From: a phage | DNA length: 64,000 nucleotides | Assembly (NCBI GenBank): GCA_024790105.1 | Contig: GCA_024790105.1_3053.1 | Reading direction: 5' to 3' (one strand) | Shown: in pieces, positions 4,588-47,991 of the stretch | Layout of the letters: each line of letters opens with the position of its first letter | Numbering within the stretch: position 1 is the first letter of the stretch | Made by a program: the position numbers and the translations under genes | Notes under the pieces: generated by a model | Told to the model about the DNA's origin: nothing | Database searches by the model: none | The model's input: only the letters and a program-made list of their open reading frames with translations

Positions 4588-5547
4588 TCACTTCCACTGC
4601 ATTTCACATGCTAACTGAATGAAAAGATAAGCTAGATGCAATTCAGTATTAGCTGCAATACCATGATACTGGTTATTTTCACCAACAATTTCATACATAC
4701 GAATAATACTTTGCGGAGTTACGCGTGTATAAATTTCTTCGGCAAGTTTACCAACGAACCACGAATAATCAGCCGCATATTTTGGTGCTAAAGCTCTGAG
4801 TTGTTTAACATCTTTATTTTTGAGAGACTCAAGAACATCATCAATAGCACCACGATCGTTAGTAACCAGTGATAAAATACCAGCATCCAAAACACCTTTA
4901 GATGAATAACTATCGAGCTCGCCAATAGTTTTACGAAAATCAGGAAAATTCTTTTTAACCAAAGCTGCTACAACTTTCATATCAGCTATAGCAATTCCTT
5001 CATGCTTACAGATTTCAGTCAACCGACGAATCATCTGCTTCATCATTTCAATTTTATCTTCATCGGTCGGTTGACCGAATGTAATAACTCGGCAGCGTGA
5101 CTGAAGCGGTTTAATAATACCATCAATATTGTTAGCAGTAATAATAATACTACAGTTTGAACTATAAGCTTCCATAAAGGAACGAAGATGTCGCTGAGAC
5201 TCTGCTAATCCTGAGCGGTCAAATTCATCAATAACGATTACTTTTTGACGACCATCAAATGAAGCGGCGCTGGCAAAATTAGTCAAAGGACCGCGAACGA
5301 AATCAATTTTACAATCTGATCCATTCACAAACATCATATCAGCATTTACATCATGACACAATGCTTTTGCTACAGTTGTTTTACCTGTTCCTGGAGAAGG
5401 AGAATGAAGAATAATATGTGGAATCTTACCTTTACTTGTAATAGATTTAAAGGTTTCTTTATCAAAGGCGGGAAGAATACATTCATCGATAGTAGATGGA
5501 CGATATTTCTGTTCAAGAATGTGTTCTTTTTCATTTACGGTAATCAT
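4588..5547 (-). CDS. 44: Clamp loader ATPase gp44
   Basis: Walker A GTGKT, SRC motif; start chosen at [11 protein letters not shown] (319 aa) by recall of T4 gp44; ORF track start at 5562. Confidence 0.9.
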
Positions 5548-5582
5548 AATTTCCTCATTCAAGTTTTAGTGTAAATTATAAA

Positions 5583-5594
5583 GGGCCGAAGCCC
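5583..5594 (-). promoter_or_regulatory. Intercistronic C(UUCG)G tetraloop hairpin on transcript
   Basis: GGGCCGAAGCCC between gene 45 stop and gene 44 start. Confidence 0.45.
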
Positions 5595-5598
5595 TCTA

Positions 5599-6285
5599 TT
5601 AAAAATCGTGGGTAGAATCAGCTTCAAGAGCTACTACATAATTCGCGTGTTCACCTTCAAATTTAGCAGCGCCTTGTTTACCTTTTGCCCAAAGCAGAAG
5701 TTTATAATTTCCTGGTTGCATTTTCATATTTGCCATATTGATAATGAAATTAAATGTATTTTCACCATCATAATCACCAAGAGTCAAAGAATATTTAACA
5801 CGGGTAAGAGCAGAATCTTCTACTTTATTAAAACCGTTAATTACGATTTTACCTTCTTTTACCGTGATAGCAATTGTATCAATTTGCAGACCACGAGATA
5901 CACGCAATAGTTGTTGAAGGTCTTCAGCTTTAATTTCAGTAACAACAGATGCTACCGGGAATGGAATTGGTTTATTAGGAGCAACTACTGTACTCGGATC
6001 GGCTGCTGGCCAAAAAATTGTTGAACGAGCATCAGCAATTTTAATATTTCCATCTTCTGACTGGGAAATTTCTGCATCGTCATTAACTAGAGACAGAATA
6101 CCGAGAAAACCGTTCAAATCGTAAATTGCTACATCAAAATCAATAACGTCAGAAATATTTGCTTCCGCATAAGTTGTACCATTAACTGCGCGAGTCATAA
6201 TAAATTGACCAGATTTAAGCATAATGCCAGAGTTAATAGTAGCGAAATTTTTCAAAATATTCAGTGTGTCTTTAGATAATTTCAT
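5599..6285 (-). CDS. 45: Sliding clamp gp45
   Basis: 228 aa, same length as T4 gp45 and sequence matches as recalled. Confidence 0.95.
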   Translation of the reverse strand: MKLSKDTLNILKNFATINSGIMLKSGQFIMTRAVNGTTYAEANISDVIDFDVAIYDLNGFLGILSLVNDDAEISQSEDGNIKIADARSTIFWPAADPSTVVAPNKPIPFPVASVVTEIKAEDLQQLLRVSRGLQIDTIAITVKEGKIVINGFNKVEDSALTRVKYSLTLGDYDGENTFNFIINMANMKMQPGNYKLLLWAKGKQGAAKFEGEHANYVVALEADSTHDF

Positions 6286-7169
6286 TTCAATTTCCTATTT
6301 ACATAATAGTTAGACCAGGACCGTACAGCACCCTGATAAGATTCGTCGTTAAACCCATTAGCTACTGCAATTTTACGAAATTTATTATAACTCGGTTTTC
6401 CGTAAGCATGCCATAAAGATTTTAATTCATCTTCATGTTCAATCCAAGTTCCTCTAGCTTTAGATTTTCTAAATTTTGATTTGAATTCCGGTAAATTATT
6501 TCTAACAGTTGCTTGAATTGAAGCTCTCTGTCTTCTTTCAGCATTATTCCATAATTCTTTTTGAGATTTAGAAATTTTTGATCTTACACTTTCTGAATTC
6601 ATTATATCACTAAACTTTTTAGCATAACTACAATCAAGATATTTCAATTTCATCTTATTTGAGAGTTTAAGCTTTTTCTCATCGGTCCAGTGATTCTTCA
6701 TTGAATTAGATATTTTGTATTTTACCTCAGAACTATGTTTGTAACCTTTACGAATACCGACATACTCAGGCGTAATTTCAGATTGCGAAAGCTTTACAAT
6801 TTTTCCAGTTAAAACATTTTTATATGTTCCATATCCTTTAGCACCAATTAAAGTATTTTCATCCGCGTATGCTTTATTAAAATATTTTATATTACTTTTT
6901 GCTTTAACTTTTAATTGAAAAAATCTTTCCAATTTTCTTGGATCTAATATAGTTTCAGCTAAAATTTTGACGGTATATTTAGTGGTTTTAATAAGCTCAA
7001 AATATTCATCACTATAACTAGATGACACGCTTCCAGTATAAATCTTTCCAGCTGAATCAATTATATTTGTTCCATCGAAAATTGCGTTAATTTTTGAACC
7101 TATATAATAACACGGAAAAATATTTTTAGCTTCCCGCTCTGGAAAGCTAATAAGATATACTAAATTCAT
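6282..7169 (-). CDS. Seg-like homing endonuclease (degenerate GIY-YIG N-terminus, NUMOD3-like repeats)
   Basis: N-terminal VYLI...YYIGS pattern; C-terminal K/R-rich repeats of the S-x-x-K-I-S type; inserted between rpbA and 45 with 4-nt overlaps. Confidence 0.5.
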
Positions 7170-7555
7170 TTATTAAAATCAGCTGCGATTGTTTCGGCAA
7201 CAATTTGTGCAGCAACAATTAGACGTTCATCTGCATTACCGCAATATTCATCTTCTAAACGTTCACCGCATGAAGTCATAATAAATTTAGCAGCGGCGTT
7301 TAGGGATTCTGCAGTATGTTTGCGCATTAGTTCAATCCATTTATTACTTACTTCACGATCGATAGCTTCATAATACGCATGACGAGCAGGTGCAGATTTA
7401 ATTTTGTTCTGAATAACTTCCATTGCGTTATCAGAAAGAGACGAAACCCATGCGCGACGAATTTTATTTTGGTTTTGCGGATTTGAGTCAGAACGCACGT
7501 GTTTTGGCTGAATATCTTTTACATCAACAGTATAATTCACAGTAATTTTAGTCAT
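7166..7555 (-). CDS. rpbA: RNA polymerase binding protein RpbA
   Basis: 129 aa, T4 RpbA length and position upstream of gene 45. Confidence 0.7.
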
Positions 7556-7564
7556 AATACACCT

Positions 7565-7756
7565 TTAGTCATAATAATCAGTAACAGTCCAAGCTTCATT
7601 TCTATTGGACATTATTTTTGTATATTCTGCTTTAAATGCATTCCTAAGCATAGATTCAGTAACTATATGCTCTTCATTAGAAAAATTATTTCTCAGAATA
7701 TATCGTTTTATTTCAGGAAAAGTTAATAGATGCTGTCCAGTTGAATATTCTGCCAC
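7565..7756 (-). CDS. Small hypothetical protein (T4 45.2-like position)
   Basis: 63-aa ORF in operon orientation. Confidence 0.4.
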   Translation of the reverse strand: MAEYSTGQHLLTFPEIKRYILRNNFSNEEHIVTESMLRNAFKAEYTKIMSNRNEAWTVTDYYD

Positions 7757-7766
7757 AGTTCCTCCG

Positions 7767-7774
7767 TATAAATA
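7767..7774 (+). promoter_or_regulatory. T4 late promoter TATAAATA upstream of plus-strand HNH gene
   Basis: Exact TATAAATA about 33 nt upstream of ATG at 7808. Confidence 0.5.
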
Positions 7775-7807
7775 TGCTTATCACTCGCTGTATCAAAAGG
7801 ATATGTT

Positions 7808-8524
7808 ATGAATTATAAACTAATTTATGAAAAGTTAATATCTAATGCTAAATCTCGAAAACTTGATTGCTATACTGAATCTCATCACATTATACCGCGC
7901 TGTTTAAATGGAAGTGATGATGCTTCAAACTTAGTAGATTTAACACCAGAAGAGCACTATGTAGCTCATCAACTTTTAGTAAAAATTTATCCTTCTGAAC
8001 CAAAATTAGTCTATGCTGCTAACATGATGACAGTTTCTACGAAATACGCTAAACGCAACAATAAAACTTTCGGTTGGATTCGTCGTAAACTCTGGGAAAT
8101 AGAAAAGAACAAAGAATTCTCCCAGGAGACACGAAAGAAAATGTCTGATGCAGTAGCTAATAAAGCAAGACTAACTTGTCCTCATTGCGGTAAGTCTGGA
8201 TTAAGCGGGAATATGAATCGTTGGCATTTTGATAACTGCCCAAATCACCCTAATCCTAAAGTTAGACCACCAATGTCTAAAGAACACAGAAATAATATCT
8301 CAAACGGGCTTAAAGCAATCGTTCTTGAAGAAACATCCTGCGAATTCTGCGGAATGATAGGCAAGAAATGCGTTATCGCAGCGCATAGAAATTTCTGCAA
8401 GAAAAATCCAAATGGACGCAAGAAAACTGAAAAGACTGGTACTTGCGTCCATTGCGGTAAAGTTACCACTTTCGGAAATTTATCAAGGTGGCATAATGAT
8501 AACTGTAAATATAAACCTAGCTAA
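7808..8524 (+). CDS. HNH homing endonuclease with three C-terminal Cys-rich repeats
   Basis: HNH core ESHHIIPRCLNGSDDASNLVDLTPEEHYVAH; three repeats of C-x2-C-G-K...RWH-x-DNC; opposite strand to the surrounding early operon. Confidence 0.75.
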   Translation: MNYKLIYEKLISNAKSRKLDCYTESHHIIPRCLNGSDDASNLVDLTPEEHYVAHQLLVKIYPSEPKLVYAANMMTVSTKYAKRNNKTFGWIRRKLWEIEKNKEFSQETRKKMSDAVANKARLTCPHCGKSGLSGNMNRWHFDNCPNHPNPKVRPPMSKEHRNNISNGLKAIVLEETSCEFCGMIGKKCVIAAHRNFCKKNPNGRKKTEKTGTCVHCGKVTTFGNLSRWHNDNCKYKPS

Positions 8525-10205
8525 TCTTAGCTAAACTAAATCTACCAACTTTTTCCATCTGAATATGCTGACCATATTCTTGTGGGTCATGGTCTTTATG
8601 CGAAATTATGAAGAAGTTGGTATCCTTCAAACCATCTAAAATTTTAGCTACATTTTTAATGCCTTCAGCATCAAATGCACCATCATACACTTCATCAAGA
8701 AATAAACAACTTATTTTAACACCTGAAACTTTTTCAGCAATATCACGCCAAGTAAATAAAAGAGCAATATCAATTCGTGCTTTTTCGCCTTGACTAAATG
8801 AAGCATAACTAAAATCTTCACGACCACGGGATTTAATTGTCTCATTAAATTCTTCATCTAATGTAAACACATAATCCGCTTCCATTATTTTAAGATAATG
8901 GTTAATCTGCTTATTAAATAATGGAATGTACTTTTTAATAATAGCACCTTTAATACCAGAATCTTTGAGCATATCAGTCAAAATTCCTCGGTGGTATTTT
9001 TCCATTACTAAATTAGTTTTTGTCTTAACAATTTTATCAAGTTCTTCTTGAAGCAGTGCTATTTCATCAGCATGGTCAATAAACTCAGAAGATGCTTTTT
9101 CTATAGCTGCTTTAACTTTTTTAGCTTTATCTACCGTCGTGATTAGAGATTGCTTTTTATTGCGAATATCATTTGCCAACGACTGCTGGGTTTTAATATT
9201 ATCTCGGTATTCATCAACAAGAACTTTTAAATTATCACGATGTGTTGAAAGCTGTTCAAACGAATGCGTACATTCAGAAACTTTATCTTTAATTTTAGAA
9301 ACAACTTTATCACCGGAACTTAATTGTGACAGACAGGTTGGACATAATCCGCCTTCGTGATACATATTAATGACTTTATTATACGAGTCAATTTTTGATT
9401 TAATTAAAACTGCTTCTTGACCGATTTTATTAAATGCATCAGTCGGGTCTTCATCCAAAACAATATTAACTAATCTTTCATTAGCTTCTTCTATTTCCGA
9501 TTTTAGCGTTCTAGCTTCTTTTGCCAAATCATCATACATATTTTGTAGACGAGTAAGGTTGTCACCCGTTAATTTTTTCTGGCGTTCAACGTTATCATTA
9601 TATATTTTAATTTGTTGGATAATACTATCTTTTTTAACATCAAGCACTTGGTTTTGTGAATTTAATTCACGTATTAGTGCTTTATTAAGCTTATCCATTT
9701 CAGCTAATGTTCCTACCTCAAGCAGGTCTTCCACAAGCTTTCTTCGCGCAGGGGTCGACAAACCCATGAAAGGGGTATACCCTGCTGTACCAAGGACAAC
9801 AATCTGCTTGAAACTGGCATATGACATTCCGATAAGCTGTTCAAATTCTGCTTGGAAATCTTTACTGCTGGCAGATTCATTAAGACGTGTACCGTTAACG
9901 GTGATTTCGAAAACGTTTGGTTTTTGTCCTCTTTTGATATAGTACTTTTTCTCATCATATTCCATCCACAGTTCAACTAAAAGTTCTTTCTTATTTGTGC
10001 TGTTTATTAATTGACCTTTCTTTACATCACGAAATGGCTTGCCAAAAAGCCCAAATGTGATGGCTTCTAACATAGTAGACTTACCACCGCCATTTCGTCC
10101 AGTAATAAGAGTTTTTTGAACCTTATCTAATTGAATGTCAATCCCATTTTGACCAACTGACATTATATTTTTATATTTTACTCTGTTAAGTTTAAAATTC
10201 TTCAC
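8517..10205 (-). CDS. 46: Recombination exonuclease subunit gp46 (Rad50/SbcC-like)
   Basis: 562 aa; Walker A GRNGGGKST, coiled-coil middle, C-terminal signature and D-loop; synteny. Confidence 0.9.
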   Translation of the reverse strand: MKNFKLNRVKYKNIMSVGQNGIDIQLDKVQKTLITGRNGGGKSTMLEAITFGLFGKPFRDVKKGQLINSTNKKELLVELWMEYDEKKYYIKRGQKPNVFEITVNGTRLNESASSKDFQAEFEQLIGMSYASFKQIVVLGTAGYTPFMGLSTPARRKLVEDLLEVGTLAEMDKLNKALIRELNSQNQVLDVKKDSIIQQIKIYNDNVERQKKLTGDNLTRLQNMYDDLAKEARTLKSEIEEANERLVNIVLDEDPTDAFNKIGQEAVLIKSKIDSYNKVINMYHEGGLCPTCLSQLSSGDKVVSKIKDKVSECTHSFEQLSTHRDNLKVLVDEYRDNIKTQQSLANDIRNKKQSLITTVDKAKKVKAAIEKASSEFIDHADEIALLQEELDKIVKTKTNLVMEKYHRGILTDMLKDSGIKGAIIKKYIPLFNKQINHYLKIMEADYVFTLDEEFNETIKSRGREDFSYASFSQGEKARIDIALLFTWRDIAEKVSGVKISCLFLDEVYDGAFDAEGIKNVAKILDGLKDTNFFIISHKDHDPQEYGQHIQMEKVGRFSLAKIS

Positions 10206-10465
10206 AAAAGATTCCTTTTAATGTATCTTTTAGACCATTCTATCATATCATCATAATCTAAAAAGTATTCATCAAATTCAGCCATGCAAACAACACCTTG
10301 TGCTGTTTTTGATGTGATATAAATTATTCCAACATATCTAGAATCTTCTTCGGTATAATCAATATTTGCTATGAATTCATCGTTAATGTCAAATGTCGAA
10401 AACTTCACAGTATGCATCCTTAATACAAGATACAGCCATATCTCGTAATGATTTGGGTGTGTCAT
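10202..10465 (-). CDS. Hypothetical protein (46.1-like position)
   Basis: 87-aa ORF between 47 and 46; overlaps neighbour in another frame, so the start is uncertain. Confidence 0.4.
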   Translation of the reverse strand: MTHPNHYEIWLYLVLRMHTVKFSTFDINDEFIANIDYTEEDSRYVGIIYITSKTAQGVVCMAEFDEYFLDYDDMIEWSKRYIKRNLL

Positions 10466-10652
10466 TATCTAAAATGTTGAAGTTAAAAGATACAGCCCAG
10501 TCAGTGCAGACCGTAACCTTTTTAATACAATTATCTTCAACCTCTAGCGGTTCAAACCAATATTCAATAATTTCTTTATGCCCAATATCATCTTTTACTT
10601 CGCATTCAAAATGCTGACTCATCATAACATTTTTAAATTCATCAAAAGTCAT
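10389..10652 (-). CDS. Hypothetical protein (46.2-like position)
   Basis: 87-aa ORF between 47 and 46. Confidence 0.4.
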   Translation of the reverse strand: MTFDEFKNVMMSQHFECEVKDDIGHKEIIEYWFEPLEVEDNCIKKVTVCTDWAVSFNFNILDNDTPKSLRDMAVSCIKDAYCEVFDI

Positions 10653-11668
10653 TGTGTTGCCTCTACATATAACTGATTTGCATATTGAATAAGTGCTTCA
10701 CGGTCAGAATCAGTGATGTCTGGAATTGCATTAATGTATTCTTCCATCAACGTCTGAAGAGATTGAACTTCAACTTCTTCACTATCATCTGACTCGACAG
10801 AGTTATCAATCTTTGACACAACTCGTAATGAATGCACAACTTTTTCTAGTTCAGATTCGAACTTCGTTAGATTTTTGTCTACCTCAGTTACTATAACACG
10901 TACTGATAGATTTGTAAAATCTTTATAGTCAATTTTTCCCTTAAATGGATATTGAATTCGACGATGCCAGGTGGTGTTGTTTGGAATAAATTCCATTCGT
11001 TCTGTTTCTGTATCAAACATCCAGAACCCACGAGGGTCATTCTCGTCACCTGCAGTTAGTGTCCATGGTGTCCCAATATATCTGACGTTAGCAGCCTCAG
11101 AGATAGTATGGAAGTGACCAGACCACACCTCTTTATAAGTCTTAAGGAAATCAGGTTCAAGACCGTGAGATTTCATTCCTTTATAAAAATAAAATCCATT
11201 CAATTCCCAGTGACCAACACAAAAAGAAGCAGATGAAGTTTTGATGTGTTCAAGAATTTCACCAGTGTTTTCTTCACACATCCAAGGAATCAAATCAATC
11301 AAACATCCGTCAAAATCTACTGTAGTAGGCTTATCATATACTTTAACATTAGGATATTTAGCCAAAAGCTCAGTAGAGGCATTTGGATGCATTACATTTT
11401 TGTAGTGAAGATCGTGATTTCCTACAATAGTATGTAATGTGATTCCAGCACCATCAAGCATTTGAACTATTTCACGGGCAAACTCCATAGTTTTATGCGT
11501 GATTGCTTTTCGCACATCAAAAATATCACCGTATTGAATCCAGGTAGTAATTCCATTTTTCTTAGAATATTCTATTGCTTGTTTAATTCCATCAATTTGA
11601 ATACCGCGAATCCACTCATCATCAGCTTTAACGCCTAAATGCCAATCACCTAAATTTAAAATTTTCAT
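10649..11668 (-). CDS. 47: Recombination nuclease subunit gp47 (Mre11/SbcD-like)
   Basis: 339 aa; calcineurin-like phosphoesterase motifs (GDWH, GNHD); T4 length. Confidence 0.9.
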   Translation of the reverse strand: MKILNLGDWHLGVKADDEWIRGIQIDGIKQAIEYSKKNGITTWIQYGDIFDVRKAITHKTMEFAREIVQMLDGAGITLHTIVGNHDLHYKNVMHPNASTELLAKYPNVKVYDKPTTVDFDGCLIDLIPWMCEENTGEILEHIKTSSASFCVGHWELNGFYFYKGMKSHGLEPDFLKTYKEVWSGHFHTISEAANVRYIGTPWTLTAGDENDPRGFWMFDTETERMEFIPNNTTWHRRIQYPFKGKIDYKDFTNLSVRVIVTEVDKNLTKFESELEKVVHSLRVVSKIDNSVESDDSEEVEVQSLQTLMEEYINAIPDITDSDREALIQYANQLYVEATQ

Positions 11669-41794: not shown

Positions 41795-41850
41795 TGCTGA
41801 TTGACGGAATCGAACCGCCGACATCCTCATTACAAGTGAGGTGCTCTACC
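41795..41850 (-). pseudogene. tRNA-Thr (UGU) 3' portion; 5' acceptor and D-stem replaced by HNH gene end
   Basis: Anticodon arm CCTCA-CTTGTAA-TGAGG, T-arm and 3' acceptor AATCAGC present; no complementary 5' acceptor strand; stop codon of HNH ORF overlaps D-arm. Confidence 0.5.
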
Positions 41851-42307
41851 ACGCTTCCGTTATTTTGTTTTTATATGCTCTATTCCTTGATTTATACGTA
41901 TCAAGTTGAGAGTCACAATTGGAACAAACAAATCTCAGATTTTCTAATCTATGGTCATTGTTTATTCCATTAATATGATCGAGAATTAAAGGCATTGGTT
42001 TGCCATTCCATACTGCTTCTATTCCACAGATAGAGCACTCATATGGTAATATTTTGTCTTCTATAAGTCTTTTTCTAAGATGGCTTCTGCCGTAAGAAGA
42101 ATTTTCAACCATTACATCACTAAGATTATATCTGTTGGTTTTTGGACCAGTCTTAAGTCCTTTATTCCAGATTTTGCAACCTTTTTGAGCTCCGGCTCCC
42201 TTCCCTCTCACATATTCAGCTTTATTTGGATTAAGTTTGCAATATTTTTCATGCACACTTTTTCCGCCAGCTTGTTTAAATTCTTTATTACAAAATTGAC
42301 AATTCAT
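41846..42307 (-). CDS. HNH homing endonuclease (inserted in tRNA cluster)
   Basis: 153 aa from ATG (MNCQFC); C-terminal HNH motif LDHINGINNDHRLENLRFVCSNCD; ORF track TTG extension rejected. Confidence 0.7.
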   Translation of the reverse strand: MNCQFCNKEFKQAGGKSVHEKYCKLNPNKAEYVRGKGAGAQKGCKIWNKGLKTGPKTNRYNLSDVMVENSSYGRSHLRKRLIEDKILPYECSICGIEAVWNGKPMPLILDHINGINNDHRLENLRFVCSNCDSQLDTYKSRNRAYKNKITEAW

Positions 42308-42583: not shown

Positions 42584-43192
42584 TTATTTATTACGTGAAA
42601 AAGACTGTTCTATCAATTCTGGACACTTTCGTTCTATCCATTTTCTAGCTTTTTGTGGGCTTATACCTATTATTTTAGCAGCTTTACTAACCCATCCAAA
42701 TTTAGAATAATCGATTTTAACTAATTCTTCGTAAATTTCATCAGTTAAAATCTTTTCATTAATATTTACCAGTAAATGATATAATTTGTTATCATTAGCA
42801 ATTTTAATGAATCTTTTATAGTTTCCGCCTTTACTTAAACCTAATGAAGTAATTGCAGATGATATAGTAGCCGAATTTAATAATGCGTTTAAAATTTCTT
42901 CATCACTAACATTATAACGCTTTTTATTATTTTTAATATTTTTACCAGCAAAAGTATCAGTTTGCGAGTGACAGTTTGGACATAATAATCTTAAATTTGA
43001 TTTAAGATGATTTTTGTTATTTCCATCAATATGGTCTAATTGCAGAACAATATGCTTATTTTGCCATTTTGAAATTTTACAAATTGCACACTCATATGGA
43101 AAAATATTTTCTTTTATTATTTTGTCTTTCAGCTTTCCTGTGCTAAAATTTGGGTGTTTTCCTTCAAAAATTTCAGCTAATTTAGTATCCAT
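42584..43192 (-). CDS. HNH homing endonuclease with C-terminal helix-turn-helix-like domain
   Basis: HNH motif LDHIDGNNKNHLKSNLRLLCPNCH; paralogous core to ORF 41846-42307; start set at ATG (ORF track begins at upstream TTG). Confidence 0.7.
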   Translation of the reverse strand: MDTKLAEIFEGKHPNFSTGKLKDKIIKENIFPYECAICKISKWQNKHIVLQLDHIDGNNKNHLKSNLRLLCPNCHSQTDTFAGKNIKNNKKRYNVSDEEILNALLNSATISSAITSLGLSKGGNYKRFIKIANDNKLYHLLVNINEKILTDEIYEELVKIDYSKFGWVSKAAKIIGISPQKARKWIERKCPELIEQSFSRNK

Positions 43193-43302
43193 AATATGAT
43201 TCCCAATTATTAACAAAGGCTCTCAAGCAAGAACCCTTGATGATAGAGGGTATTAATCAGTGCGATATGAGTTAATAATAACAAATAATTCTTAAAGCAT
43301 AT

Positions 43303-47968: not shown

Positions 47969-47976
47969 TATAAATA
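47969..47976 (+). promoter_or_regulatory. T4 late promoter TATAAATA for gene 53
   Basis: Exact TATAAATA 28 nt upstream of gene 53 start. Confidence 0.6.
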
Positions 47977-47983
47977 GATAATA

Positions 47984-47991
47984 TATTTATA
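47984..47991 (-). promoter_or_regulatory. T4 late promoter TATAAATA for gene 4 (divergent)
   Basis: Plus strand TATTTATA, 27 nt upstream of gene 4 start on minus strand. Confidence 0.6.

Follow-up and report, generated by a model that had tools for sequence, protein, structure and literature searches.

The DNA analyzed here is a 64,000-nt stretch from a phage (contig GCA_024790105.1_3053.1 of GenBank assembly GCA_024790105.1; the whole stretch is called the window below). It is a segment of a T4-like (Tequatrovirus) genome, 97-98% identical to several Tequatrovirus records over positions 6000-9500. Between genes 45.2 and 46, on the plus strand at 7808-8524, it contains a gene for a protein of 238 amino acids. 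We conclude that this gene probably encodes an active free-standing HNH homing endonuclease that is expressed late from a cassette in reverse orientation and targets the 3' part of gene 46. By its sequence, the gene falls into known classes: it is a further, uncharacterized homing endonuclease gene (HEG) of the free-standing, Mob-like HNH type, with I-TevIII-type fingers and a predicted T4 late promoter.

The gene is already known as an annotation in dozens of genomes, and this type of finger has already been characterized in I-TevIII. Three points are new here: the cassette with its conserved promoter in reverse orientation, the complete linkage of the gene to a recoded tract of gene 46 that predicts the target, and the finger as a shuffled module present in variable number. 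The most distinctive feature is the reverse orientation with a dedicated, conserved, predicted late promoter. These results extend a known family and leave current understanding unchanged.

The endonuclease gene and its insertion site

The open reading frame (ORF) encodes a protein with an N-terminal Mob-like HNH domain. The ORF starts with ATG, with AAGGA 6 nt before it, and the whole protein matched PHROG 655 ("homing endonuclease") with E=8.6e-69. There were 2304 relatives at E<=1e-3 in a large protein collection. The predicted catalytic domain is in residues 1-100 (7808-8107, plus strand) and these 100 residues were 36% identical to RB3 MobE (alignment of 141 aa, E=2e-23). The HNH core reads ESHHIIP...SNLVDLTPEEH, and residues H26, H27, N41, and H50 were invariant in a family alignment of 37 homologues. 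When the profile of these 37 members was used, residues 21-50 aligned with the HNH motifs of EcoKMcrA (E=6.6e-4), Cas8-HNH, a group II intron maturase, and IscB, and the family also matched an IscB region in NCBIfam (E=3.7e-5). In the structural model, this region has strands at 24-27 and 42-45 and a helix at 47-60, that is, two strands and a helix within residues 24-60. The Pfam HNH model (PF01844) scored 16.9 bits on the protein, under the cut-off of 21.4, and a precomputed PF01844 match is present on some homologues. A search of PDB sequences gave nothing significant with the single protein and the HNH motif only with the family profile. The motif, the homology to Mob proteins, and the profile support the view that the product is an HNH (beta-beta-alpha-Me) endonuclease, as had been proposed in an earlier reading of the sequence alone (the sequence-only reading).

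The gene is the sole plus-strand gene in the first ~48 kb of the window. This had been noticed in the sequence-only reading, along with the position between 45.2 and gene 46 on the opposite strand, and both statements agree with the ORF coordinates and with the annotation of a close relative. In the annotated phage N2, the endonuclease gene is the only plus-strand coding sequence of the 96 in the equivalent 49 kb. Our ORF census of the window found no other credible plus-strand ORF before the block of late genes that starts at ~48 kb. The 3' ends of the endonuclease gene and the convergent gene 46 share 8 nt, so that their stop codons overlap.

Among close relatives, the gene is present or absent at a fixed intergenic site, which is the pattern of a free-standing HEG. 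At this site, 59 phage records (RB32, RB33, RB51, and RB68 among them) had copies 96-99% identical to that in the window, annotated either as "homing endonuclease" or as "putative site-specific intron-like DNA endonuclease". These 59 are ~9% of the ~640 Tequatrovirus-like records that matched the flanks. At sites that lack the HEG (phages GiZh and T4T and six IMG/VR contigs) there was ~55 bp of intergenic DNA in place of the gene. The six contigs came from a scan of IMG/VR with gp45.2, in which all six loci found were HEG-less; they were used as controls only, being too few for statistics, and the counts are from the phage collection. A literature search found no study of this particular gene; its only trace is Table 5 of the Petrov/Karam review, where RB32 is credited with two mob-like HNH genes.

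More distant orthologues are at the same place in other phage groups. Orthologues with 55-64% protein identity were found in Yersinia phage MHG19, Escherichia phage Bp7 (Dhakavirus), Mosigvirus mar005p1, Klebsiella phages KR8 and Roth67, and metagenomic contigs. Each of them lay between 45.2 and 46 in the opposite orientation, and the convergent stop codons of the endonuclease gene and gene 46 overlapped or nearly touched in all lineages. The Roth67 orthologue (locus L019, 1550-2284) is broken into two ORFs and appears to be a decaying element. In Bp7 (locus L017, 2447-3749), gene 46 is annotated in two pieces adjoining the endonuclease gene, which may reflect a frameshift or a sequencing error. 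The copies in the window and in phage N2 differed by 17 synonymous and 0 nonsynonymous changes (proportions pS 0.118 and pN 0), and therefore the protein is under strong purifying selection.

The gene is preceded by a conserved candidate late promoter and leader. An exact TATAAATA, the -10 element of T4-type late promoters, is at 7767-7774 on the plus strand, with 33 nt between it and the ATG of the endonuclease gene. It directly abuts the 45.2 Shine-Dalgarno sequence on the opposite strand. The left edge of the insertion is immediately before TATAAATA, and HEG-less phages read CATAGAGAT at this position. The sequence-only reading had reported the element at this distance and had proposed that the gene has its own late promoter. 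The comparison of orthologues bears this out: each of the 11 orthologous loci examined, which represent six sequence lineages, had an exact TATAAATA 31-45 nt upstream of the start codon. Next to it is a conserved 5' leader (7775-7807, plus strand; TTATCnGTyGCwGTATCAaA in the cross-lineage alignment) that includes the presumed ribosome-binding site AAGGA. The part of the leader at 7775-7800, in which TATCA occurs twice, was kept across lineages whose proteins are 55-64% identical (L005-L009 and L017-L019). DNA upstream of TATAAATA was unrelated between lineages in the 11 loci. The conservation of TATAAATA and the leader, and not of the DNA further upstream, is good comparative evidence for a functional promoter that belongs to the cassette. 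We suggest that promoter, leader, and ORF make up a self-contained mobile cassette inserted in reverse between 45.2 and 46.

Two ideas about the leader found no support. No RNA structure hiding the ribosome-binding site was found (fold of 7778-7850, z=0.05). We also considered whether the promoter and leader mimic the homing site and serve as an operator, as in I-TevI. Without gaps, the promoter and leader matched the HEG-less 45.2-46 region at no more than 14 of 20 positions, a score reached in 71 of 100 shuffles, and we rejected this idea.

The start of the neighboring gene also differs between phages with and without the HEG. At the start of 45.2 (7750-7766, minus strand), carriers use GTG-GCA only 3 nt after GGAGGA and HEG-less phages use ATG with a 5-nt spacer, and therefore the insertion remodeled the translation start of its neighbor.

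The linked tract of gene 46 and a proposed homing model

Phages with the endonuclease gene have a divergent 3' end of gene 46. Over 5500-11000, the window was 97-100% identical to HEG-less Tequatroviruses except for ~270 nt of gene 46 beside the HEG. This tract (8525-8792; gene 46 is on the minus strand) was 82% identical to HEG-less alleles, and the adjoining 319 nt were 99-100% identical. In bins of 100 nt, identity was 86-91%, 66-78%, and 82-91%, followed by an abrupt return to 100%; the last differences from T4T were at 8772-8792. The tract encodes the ATP-binding cassette signature (SFSQGEK), Walker B (LFLDEVYDG), D-loop, H-loop (FIISHKD), and C-terminal tail of gp46. The motifs are retained and the residues around them are altered. 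Relative to T4T, pS was 0.38 and pN 0.12. This is too deep for local mutation and fits import from a diverged donor.

Linkage between the tract and the endonuclease gene was complete among carriers. The tract allele was bimodal in the phage collection, with 60 records at >=95% identity, one at 90-95%, and 452 at 80-90%. The HEG-type allele was present in all 59 carriers and in 1 of ~453 non-carriers. The exception, Escherichia phage KMB22 (OR539217.1; L023, 1420-1764), has no HEG, has an intergenic region and a gene 46 tail of the HEG-less type, and switches to the HEG-type tract at ~8567. KMB22 is a natural recombinant.

The tract is on one side of the insertion and has a counterpart in a second genus. 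The left flank, 45.2, was 99-100% identical to that of HEG-less phages, with no tract on that side. The asymmetry between the intact 45.2 flank and the divergent gene 46 suggests that the cut is made on the side of gene 46. In the Dhakaviruses, a comparison of Bp7 (carrier) with JS98 (non-carrier) gave flanks of 90-100% identity, ~250 nt of gene 46 at 66-78%, and then 98%. Intronless homing necessarily co-converts whatever DNA separates the endonuclease gene from the cut. A one-sided tract of similar length in two genera argues for a cut in HEG-less genomes somewhere in the last ~270 nt of gene 46, and for protection of the carrier allele by its divergence. Based on these comparisons, the tract probably contains the site that is cut in HEG-less genomes.

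We also considered a common origin of the HEG-linked tracts, as expected for one traveling cassette. The tracts of different lineages were 64-77% identical to each other, no closer than they were to HEG-less alleles, and a common origin was rejected. Separately, HEG-less Tequatrovirus alleles vary among themselves at the equivalents of 8601-8700, where two of them (L013 and L014) were 66-68% identical to the window and the others were 75-78% identical. The 3' end of gene 46 is therefore a hot spot of polymorphism, perhaps the scar of repeated invasions.

We propose the following pathway. Early and middle transcription of the minus strand would read through the cassette, where the ORF would be antisense. 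The reverse orientation would therefore prevent translation of the ORF from early and middle transcripts. The gp55-dependent TATAAATA promoter at 7767 would drive a plus-strand mRNA late only. Two NUMOD3-like helices and three CCHC fingers would make an extended beads-on-a-string region that recognizes a long site, and the N-terminal Mob-type HNH domain would cut the DNA. In a mixed infection, a HEG-less genome would be cut in the 3' part of gene 46, roughly at the equivalent of window positions 8590-8800. Recombinational repair from the carrier would then copy in the HEG and, with it, the ~270 nt of gene 46 that separate the cut from the insertion point. Because this stretch is recoded in the gene 46 allele of the carrier, the carrier itself would escape cutting. 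T4 homing endonucleases are as a rule expressed from middle or late promoters, and SegF, SegG, and MobE are established cases of intronless homing in which a conserved neighboring gene is cut (PMC2988022).

Several observations weigh against this model. TATAAATA is not rare in the AT-rich window: there were 15 copies versus 10.6 expected, and 15 of 100 shuffles reached 15. The late promoter is read from sequence only. KMB22 carries most of the tract without the endonuclease gene. Finally, the HEG-linked tracts of different lineages are not mutually closer, and therefore immunity is not demonstrated; the tract could be a foreign flank that was co-imported at each invasion. Regarding the first of these, all 15 copies of TATAAATA in the window are co-oriented with the local genes, including a pair on opposite strands, 8 nt apart, at 47969-47991, where the early genes of the minus strand give way to the late genes of the plus strand. 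We take the copy at 7767 as meaningful because of its position, the co-orientation of all 15 copies, and its conservation in orthologues, and we consider a dedicated late promoter supported as a prediction.

The strong purifying selection, and the retention of site, orientation, and promoter across several phage groups at 55-64% protein identity, could also indicate a domesticated nuclease that serves the phage. It might act as a late weapon against co-infecting relatives, in marker exclusion or interference competition, or as a nicking enzyme that seeds recombination-dependent replication, with homing incidental. T4 homing endonucleases do cause partial exclusion of T2 (PMC2993671). However, only ~9% of close relatives carry the gene and a decayed copy exists, as for a dispensable selfish element, and exclusion and homing are the same cleavage, which makes exclusion an added consequence more than an alternative. 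We consider domestication unlikely.

The unusual conservation of the leader between promoter and start codon raises a different alternative, that the protein is a catalytically dead or target-less remnant kept as a zinc-finger DNA-binding protein, for example as a late repressor or autorepressor. I-TevI has such a second role as autorepressor at an operator that overlaps its own late promoter (PMC2988022). However, H26, H27, N41, and H50 are invariant in the 37 homologues, there are zero nonsynonymous changes relative to N2, and the promoter and leader lack similarity to the putative target region, as described above. A remnant of this kind is very unlikely.

We found no terminator-like site on the plus strand from the end of the ORF up to 10500 in a terminator scan, which makes antisense read-through into gene 46 possible. 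Such read-through would be antisense to gene 46 and not to gene 45; the sequence-only reading had placed it across the 46/45 junction. That the RNA is the main product, a late transcript that turns off production of the recombination nuclease gp46, is highly improbable: the convergent stop codons and the Edgell review, which mentions that antisense transcripts could arise from endonuclease promoters in the opposite orientation, are compatible with it, but the ORF is under strong selection at the protein level, ~90% of relatives do without the element, and the plus-strand transcript is a prediction. An active homing endonuclease remains the best account of the gene.

The zinc fingers

The C-terminal part of the endonuclease has three Cys-rich units of the I-TevIII type. 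They are at residues 124-144, 178-197, and 213-233 and have the pattern CX2C-X11/12-H-X3-C, with a spacer of X12 in fingers 1 and 3 (F1 and F3) and X11 in finger 2 (F2). The sequence-only reading had described a triplicated repeat of about 40 residues. The three Cys-rich units are as it quoted them; the repeat is not uniform, and consists of fingers of ~21-26 aa that are spaced 54 and 35 aa apart and fall into two subtypes.

The fingers resemble the two fingers of I-TevIII (ZF1 and ZF2) in alternation. F1 (CPHCGKSGLSGNMNRWHFDNC), with a NUMOD3-like helix before it, is encoded at 8114-8254 on the plus strand; it is of type B, like ZF2, to which it is identical at 14 of 30 positions (z=9.7). F2 (CEFCGMIGKKCVIAAHRNFCKKNPN), also preceded by a NUMOD3-like helix (8270-8413, plus strand), is of type A, like ZF1 (14 of 29 identical, z=9.9). 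F3 (CVHCGKVTTFGNLSRWHNDNCKYKP; 8435-8521, plus strand) is again of type B and corresponds to the C-terminal finger of nearly the whole family; its predicted ligands C213, C216, H229, and C233 were invariant in 37 homologues. F1 and F3 share 15 of 29 residues (z=12.4), and F2 is weakly similar to both (8 of 29, z=2.6-2.9). The order B-A-B is that of the I-TevIII A-B pair with an extra B finger in front. The Pfam NUMOD3 model (PF07460) scored 12.6 bits on the endonuclease, under its threshold of 20.4, and many single-finger homologues carry PF07460 in the equivalent region.

Searches with the fingers and a structural model agree with this assignment. Using BLASTP, residues 174-236 (F2 and F3) were 37% identical to the two I-TevIII zinc fingers (E=7e-8), and F1 alone was 50% identical to the second I-TevIII finger over 28 residues. 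The 269-position profile phrog_12324 ("intron-like DNA endonuclease") matched residues 165-235 (E=4.7e-8). The AlphaFold2 model (predicted local distance difference test score 89.6) has two short strands and a helix per finger. In the region of F1 and its preceding helix, the model has a helix at 106-117, strands at 121-123 and 130-132, and a helix at 133-140; the structural elements of the F2 region are at 158-199. The I-TevIII finger consensus is CX2CX12-13HX3C, with approximately one zinc per finger that is lost in C-to-A mutants (Robbins et al. 2007, PMC1865063), and disrupting either finger of I-TevIII lowers DNA binding and cleavage (PMC1865063). Homology to these experimentally studied fingers supports the proposal, also made in the sequence-only reading, that the three units are zinc-binding DNA-recognition units, and we expect them to bind zinc and DNA as those of I-TevIII do.

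The number of fingers varies among related proteins. Among the full-length homologues, 118 of the best 120 had at least one finger: 86 had one, at the C terminus, 7 had two, and 25 had three. An exhaustive search with the finger region only gave 975 cluster representatives at E<=1e-3. Among the 150 listed of these 975, 146 were newly found proteins with 2-9 fingers each. The CCHC fingers were joined to Mob-type HNH or GIY-YIG heads; protein P0265, for example, has 7 fingers and a Pfam GIY-YIG match (E=1e-10). Three fingers are unremarkable because related proteins carry 1-9. Pfam has no dedicated model for the CCHC finger, and its zinc-ribbon models gave scattered sub-threshold matches only.

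The finger pattern had one further occurrence in the six frames of the 64-kb window. It is in an HNH ORF at 41849-42307, which opens with a single finger of the I-TevIII ZF1 type (CQFCNKEFKQAGGKSVHEKYCKLNPN). This ORF (minus strand; phrog_10822, E=9e-32) adjoins another HNH endonuclease ORF at 42587-43216 (minus strand; phrog_14736, E=6e-124). The CCHC finger is a shuffled module of variable number, without a Pfam model or solved structure. We call it shuffled because in ORF 41849-42307 it is N-terminal to a different type of HNH domain.

These features can be combined into a more far-reaching picture. The CCHC fingers may be classical beta-beta-alpha fingers that read DNA modularly, in natural arrays of 1-9 on HNH or GIY-YIG heads that are rapidly reshuffled, a viral counterpart of eukaryotic C2H2 arrays. 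The cassette, a strictly late reverse nuclease plus a recoded allele of the Rad50-like gene 46, might then be a weapon for interference competition against related phages. Taken as a whole, this joint picture is speculative and we think it unlikely.

Neighboring genes and known systems

The genes around the insertion are those of a T4-like replication and recombination region, all on the minus strand: the clamp loader gp44 (4588-5562), the sliding clamp gp45 (5599-6285), RpbA (7166-7555; Pfam Phage_RpbA, E=1e-40), gp45.2 (7565-7756; Pfam Gp45_2, E=3e-35), the Rad50/SbcC-like gp46 (8517-10205), and gp47 (10649-11668). Between gene 45 and rpbA there is also a 295-aa ORF (6282-7169, minus strand), apparently a second free-standing homing endonuclease gene. 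It matched phrog_655 (E=4e-33) and phrog_7504 (E=5e-18), and had no above-threshold Pfam nuclease domain. Of the six HEG-less IMG/VR contigs, five (L010, L011, and L013-L015) lack this insertion; in GiZh it is present but unannotated. It was found together with the HNH gene in only 4 phage records.

If the model of an active, late-expressed homing endonuclease holds, this locus provides a well-replicated natural case of intronless homing, documented by 59 carriers and hundreds of empty sites, by one natural recombinant, and by independent lineages from several phage groups. The predicted target would be a Rad50-like recombination gene. The product of gene 46 is used by the T4 double-strand-break repair pathway itself. 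A HEG that is oppositely oriented and, unlike T4 segD, has its own conserved late promoter would be a clean test of how such a gene fits into the phage transcription program and of antisense read-through. A three-finger relative of I-TevIII could help explain how the CCHC type of finger recognizes DNA.

I-TevIII, encoded in the nrdB intron of RB3, is similar to the window endonuclease in both parts of the protein, and both are from T-even-type phages. Each has an N-terminal HNH domain, with H26, H27, N39, and H48 in I-TevIII corresponding to H26, H27, N41, and H50 here, and C-terminal tandem CX2CX12-13HX3C fingers. F2 and F3 align with ZF1 and ZF2, including the CKxNPN linker. I-TevIII is intron-encoded, co-oriented with nrdB, and 269 aa long with two fingers, whereas the window endonuclease is free-standing, reversed, and has an extra type-B finger upstream. 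The HNH domain of I-TevIII has no detectable sequence similarity to that of the window protein beyond the motif; the latter is of the Mob type. Dimerization has been shown for I-TevIII, and binding in the minor groove of DNA has been proposed for it.

The Mob family, in particular RB3 MobE, resembles the window gene in its genomic setting. Its members are free-standing, are located between conserved genes, and have a patchy distribution, and MobE shares the N-terminal homology described above. The cut of MobE is in a neighboring conserved gene (PMC2988022), and the same is likely for the window enzyme. RB3 MobE differs in that it lacks the CCHC finger. In addition, mobA, mobC, mobD, and mobE have no promoters of their own and run in the same direction as their neighbors, whereas the window gene is reversed with a predicted late promoter of its own.

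T4 segD is the closest parallel in orientation. It is a free-standing endonuclease gene opposite to both neighbors, and the only such gene in T4 (PMC2988022). However, segD encodes a GIY-YIG enzyme; no promoter can be identified for it and its expression is presumed to be minimal, in contrast to the exact late promoter element found in all orthologues examined here.

The variable fingers recall the T5orf172 arrays described by Barth, Dunham & Seed 2023 (PMC10055350). In both, zinc-finger modules are arranged like beads on a string on a nuclease, vary, and have been shuffled. The T5orf172 arrays consist of fingers of the CapR/DUF723 type (CxxC...CxC), whereas those described here are CCHC fingers of the I-TevIII type, in arrays of 2-9 on HNH or GIY-YIG heads.

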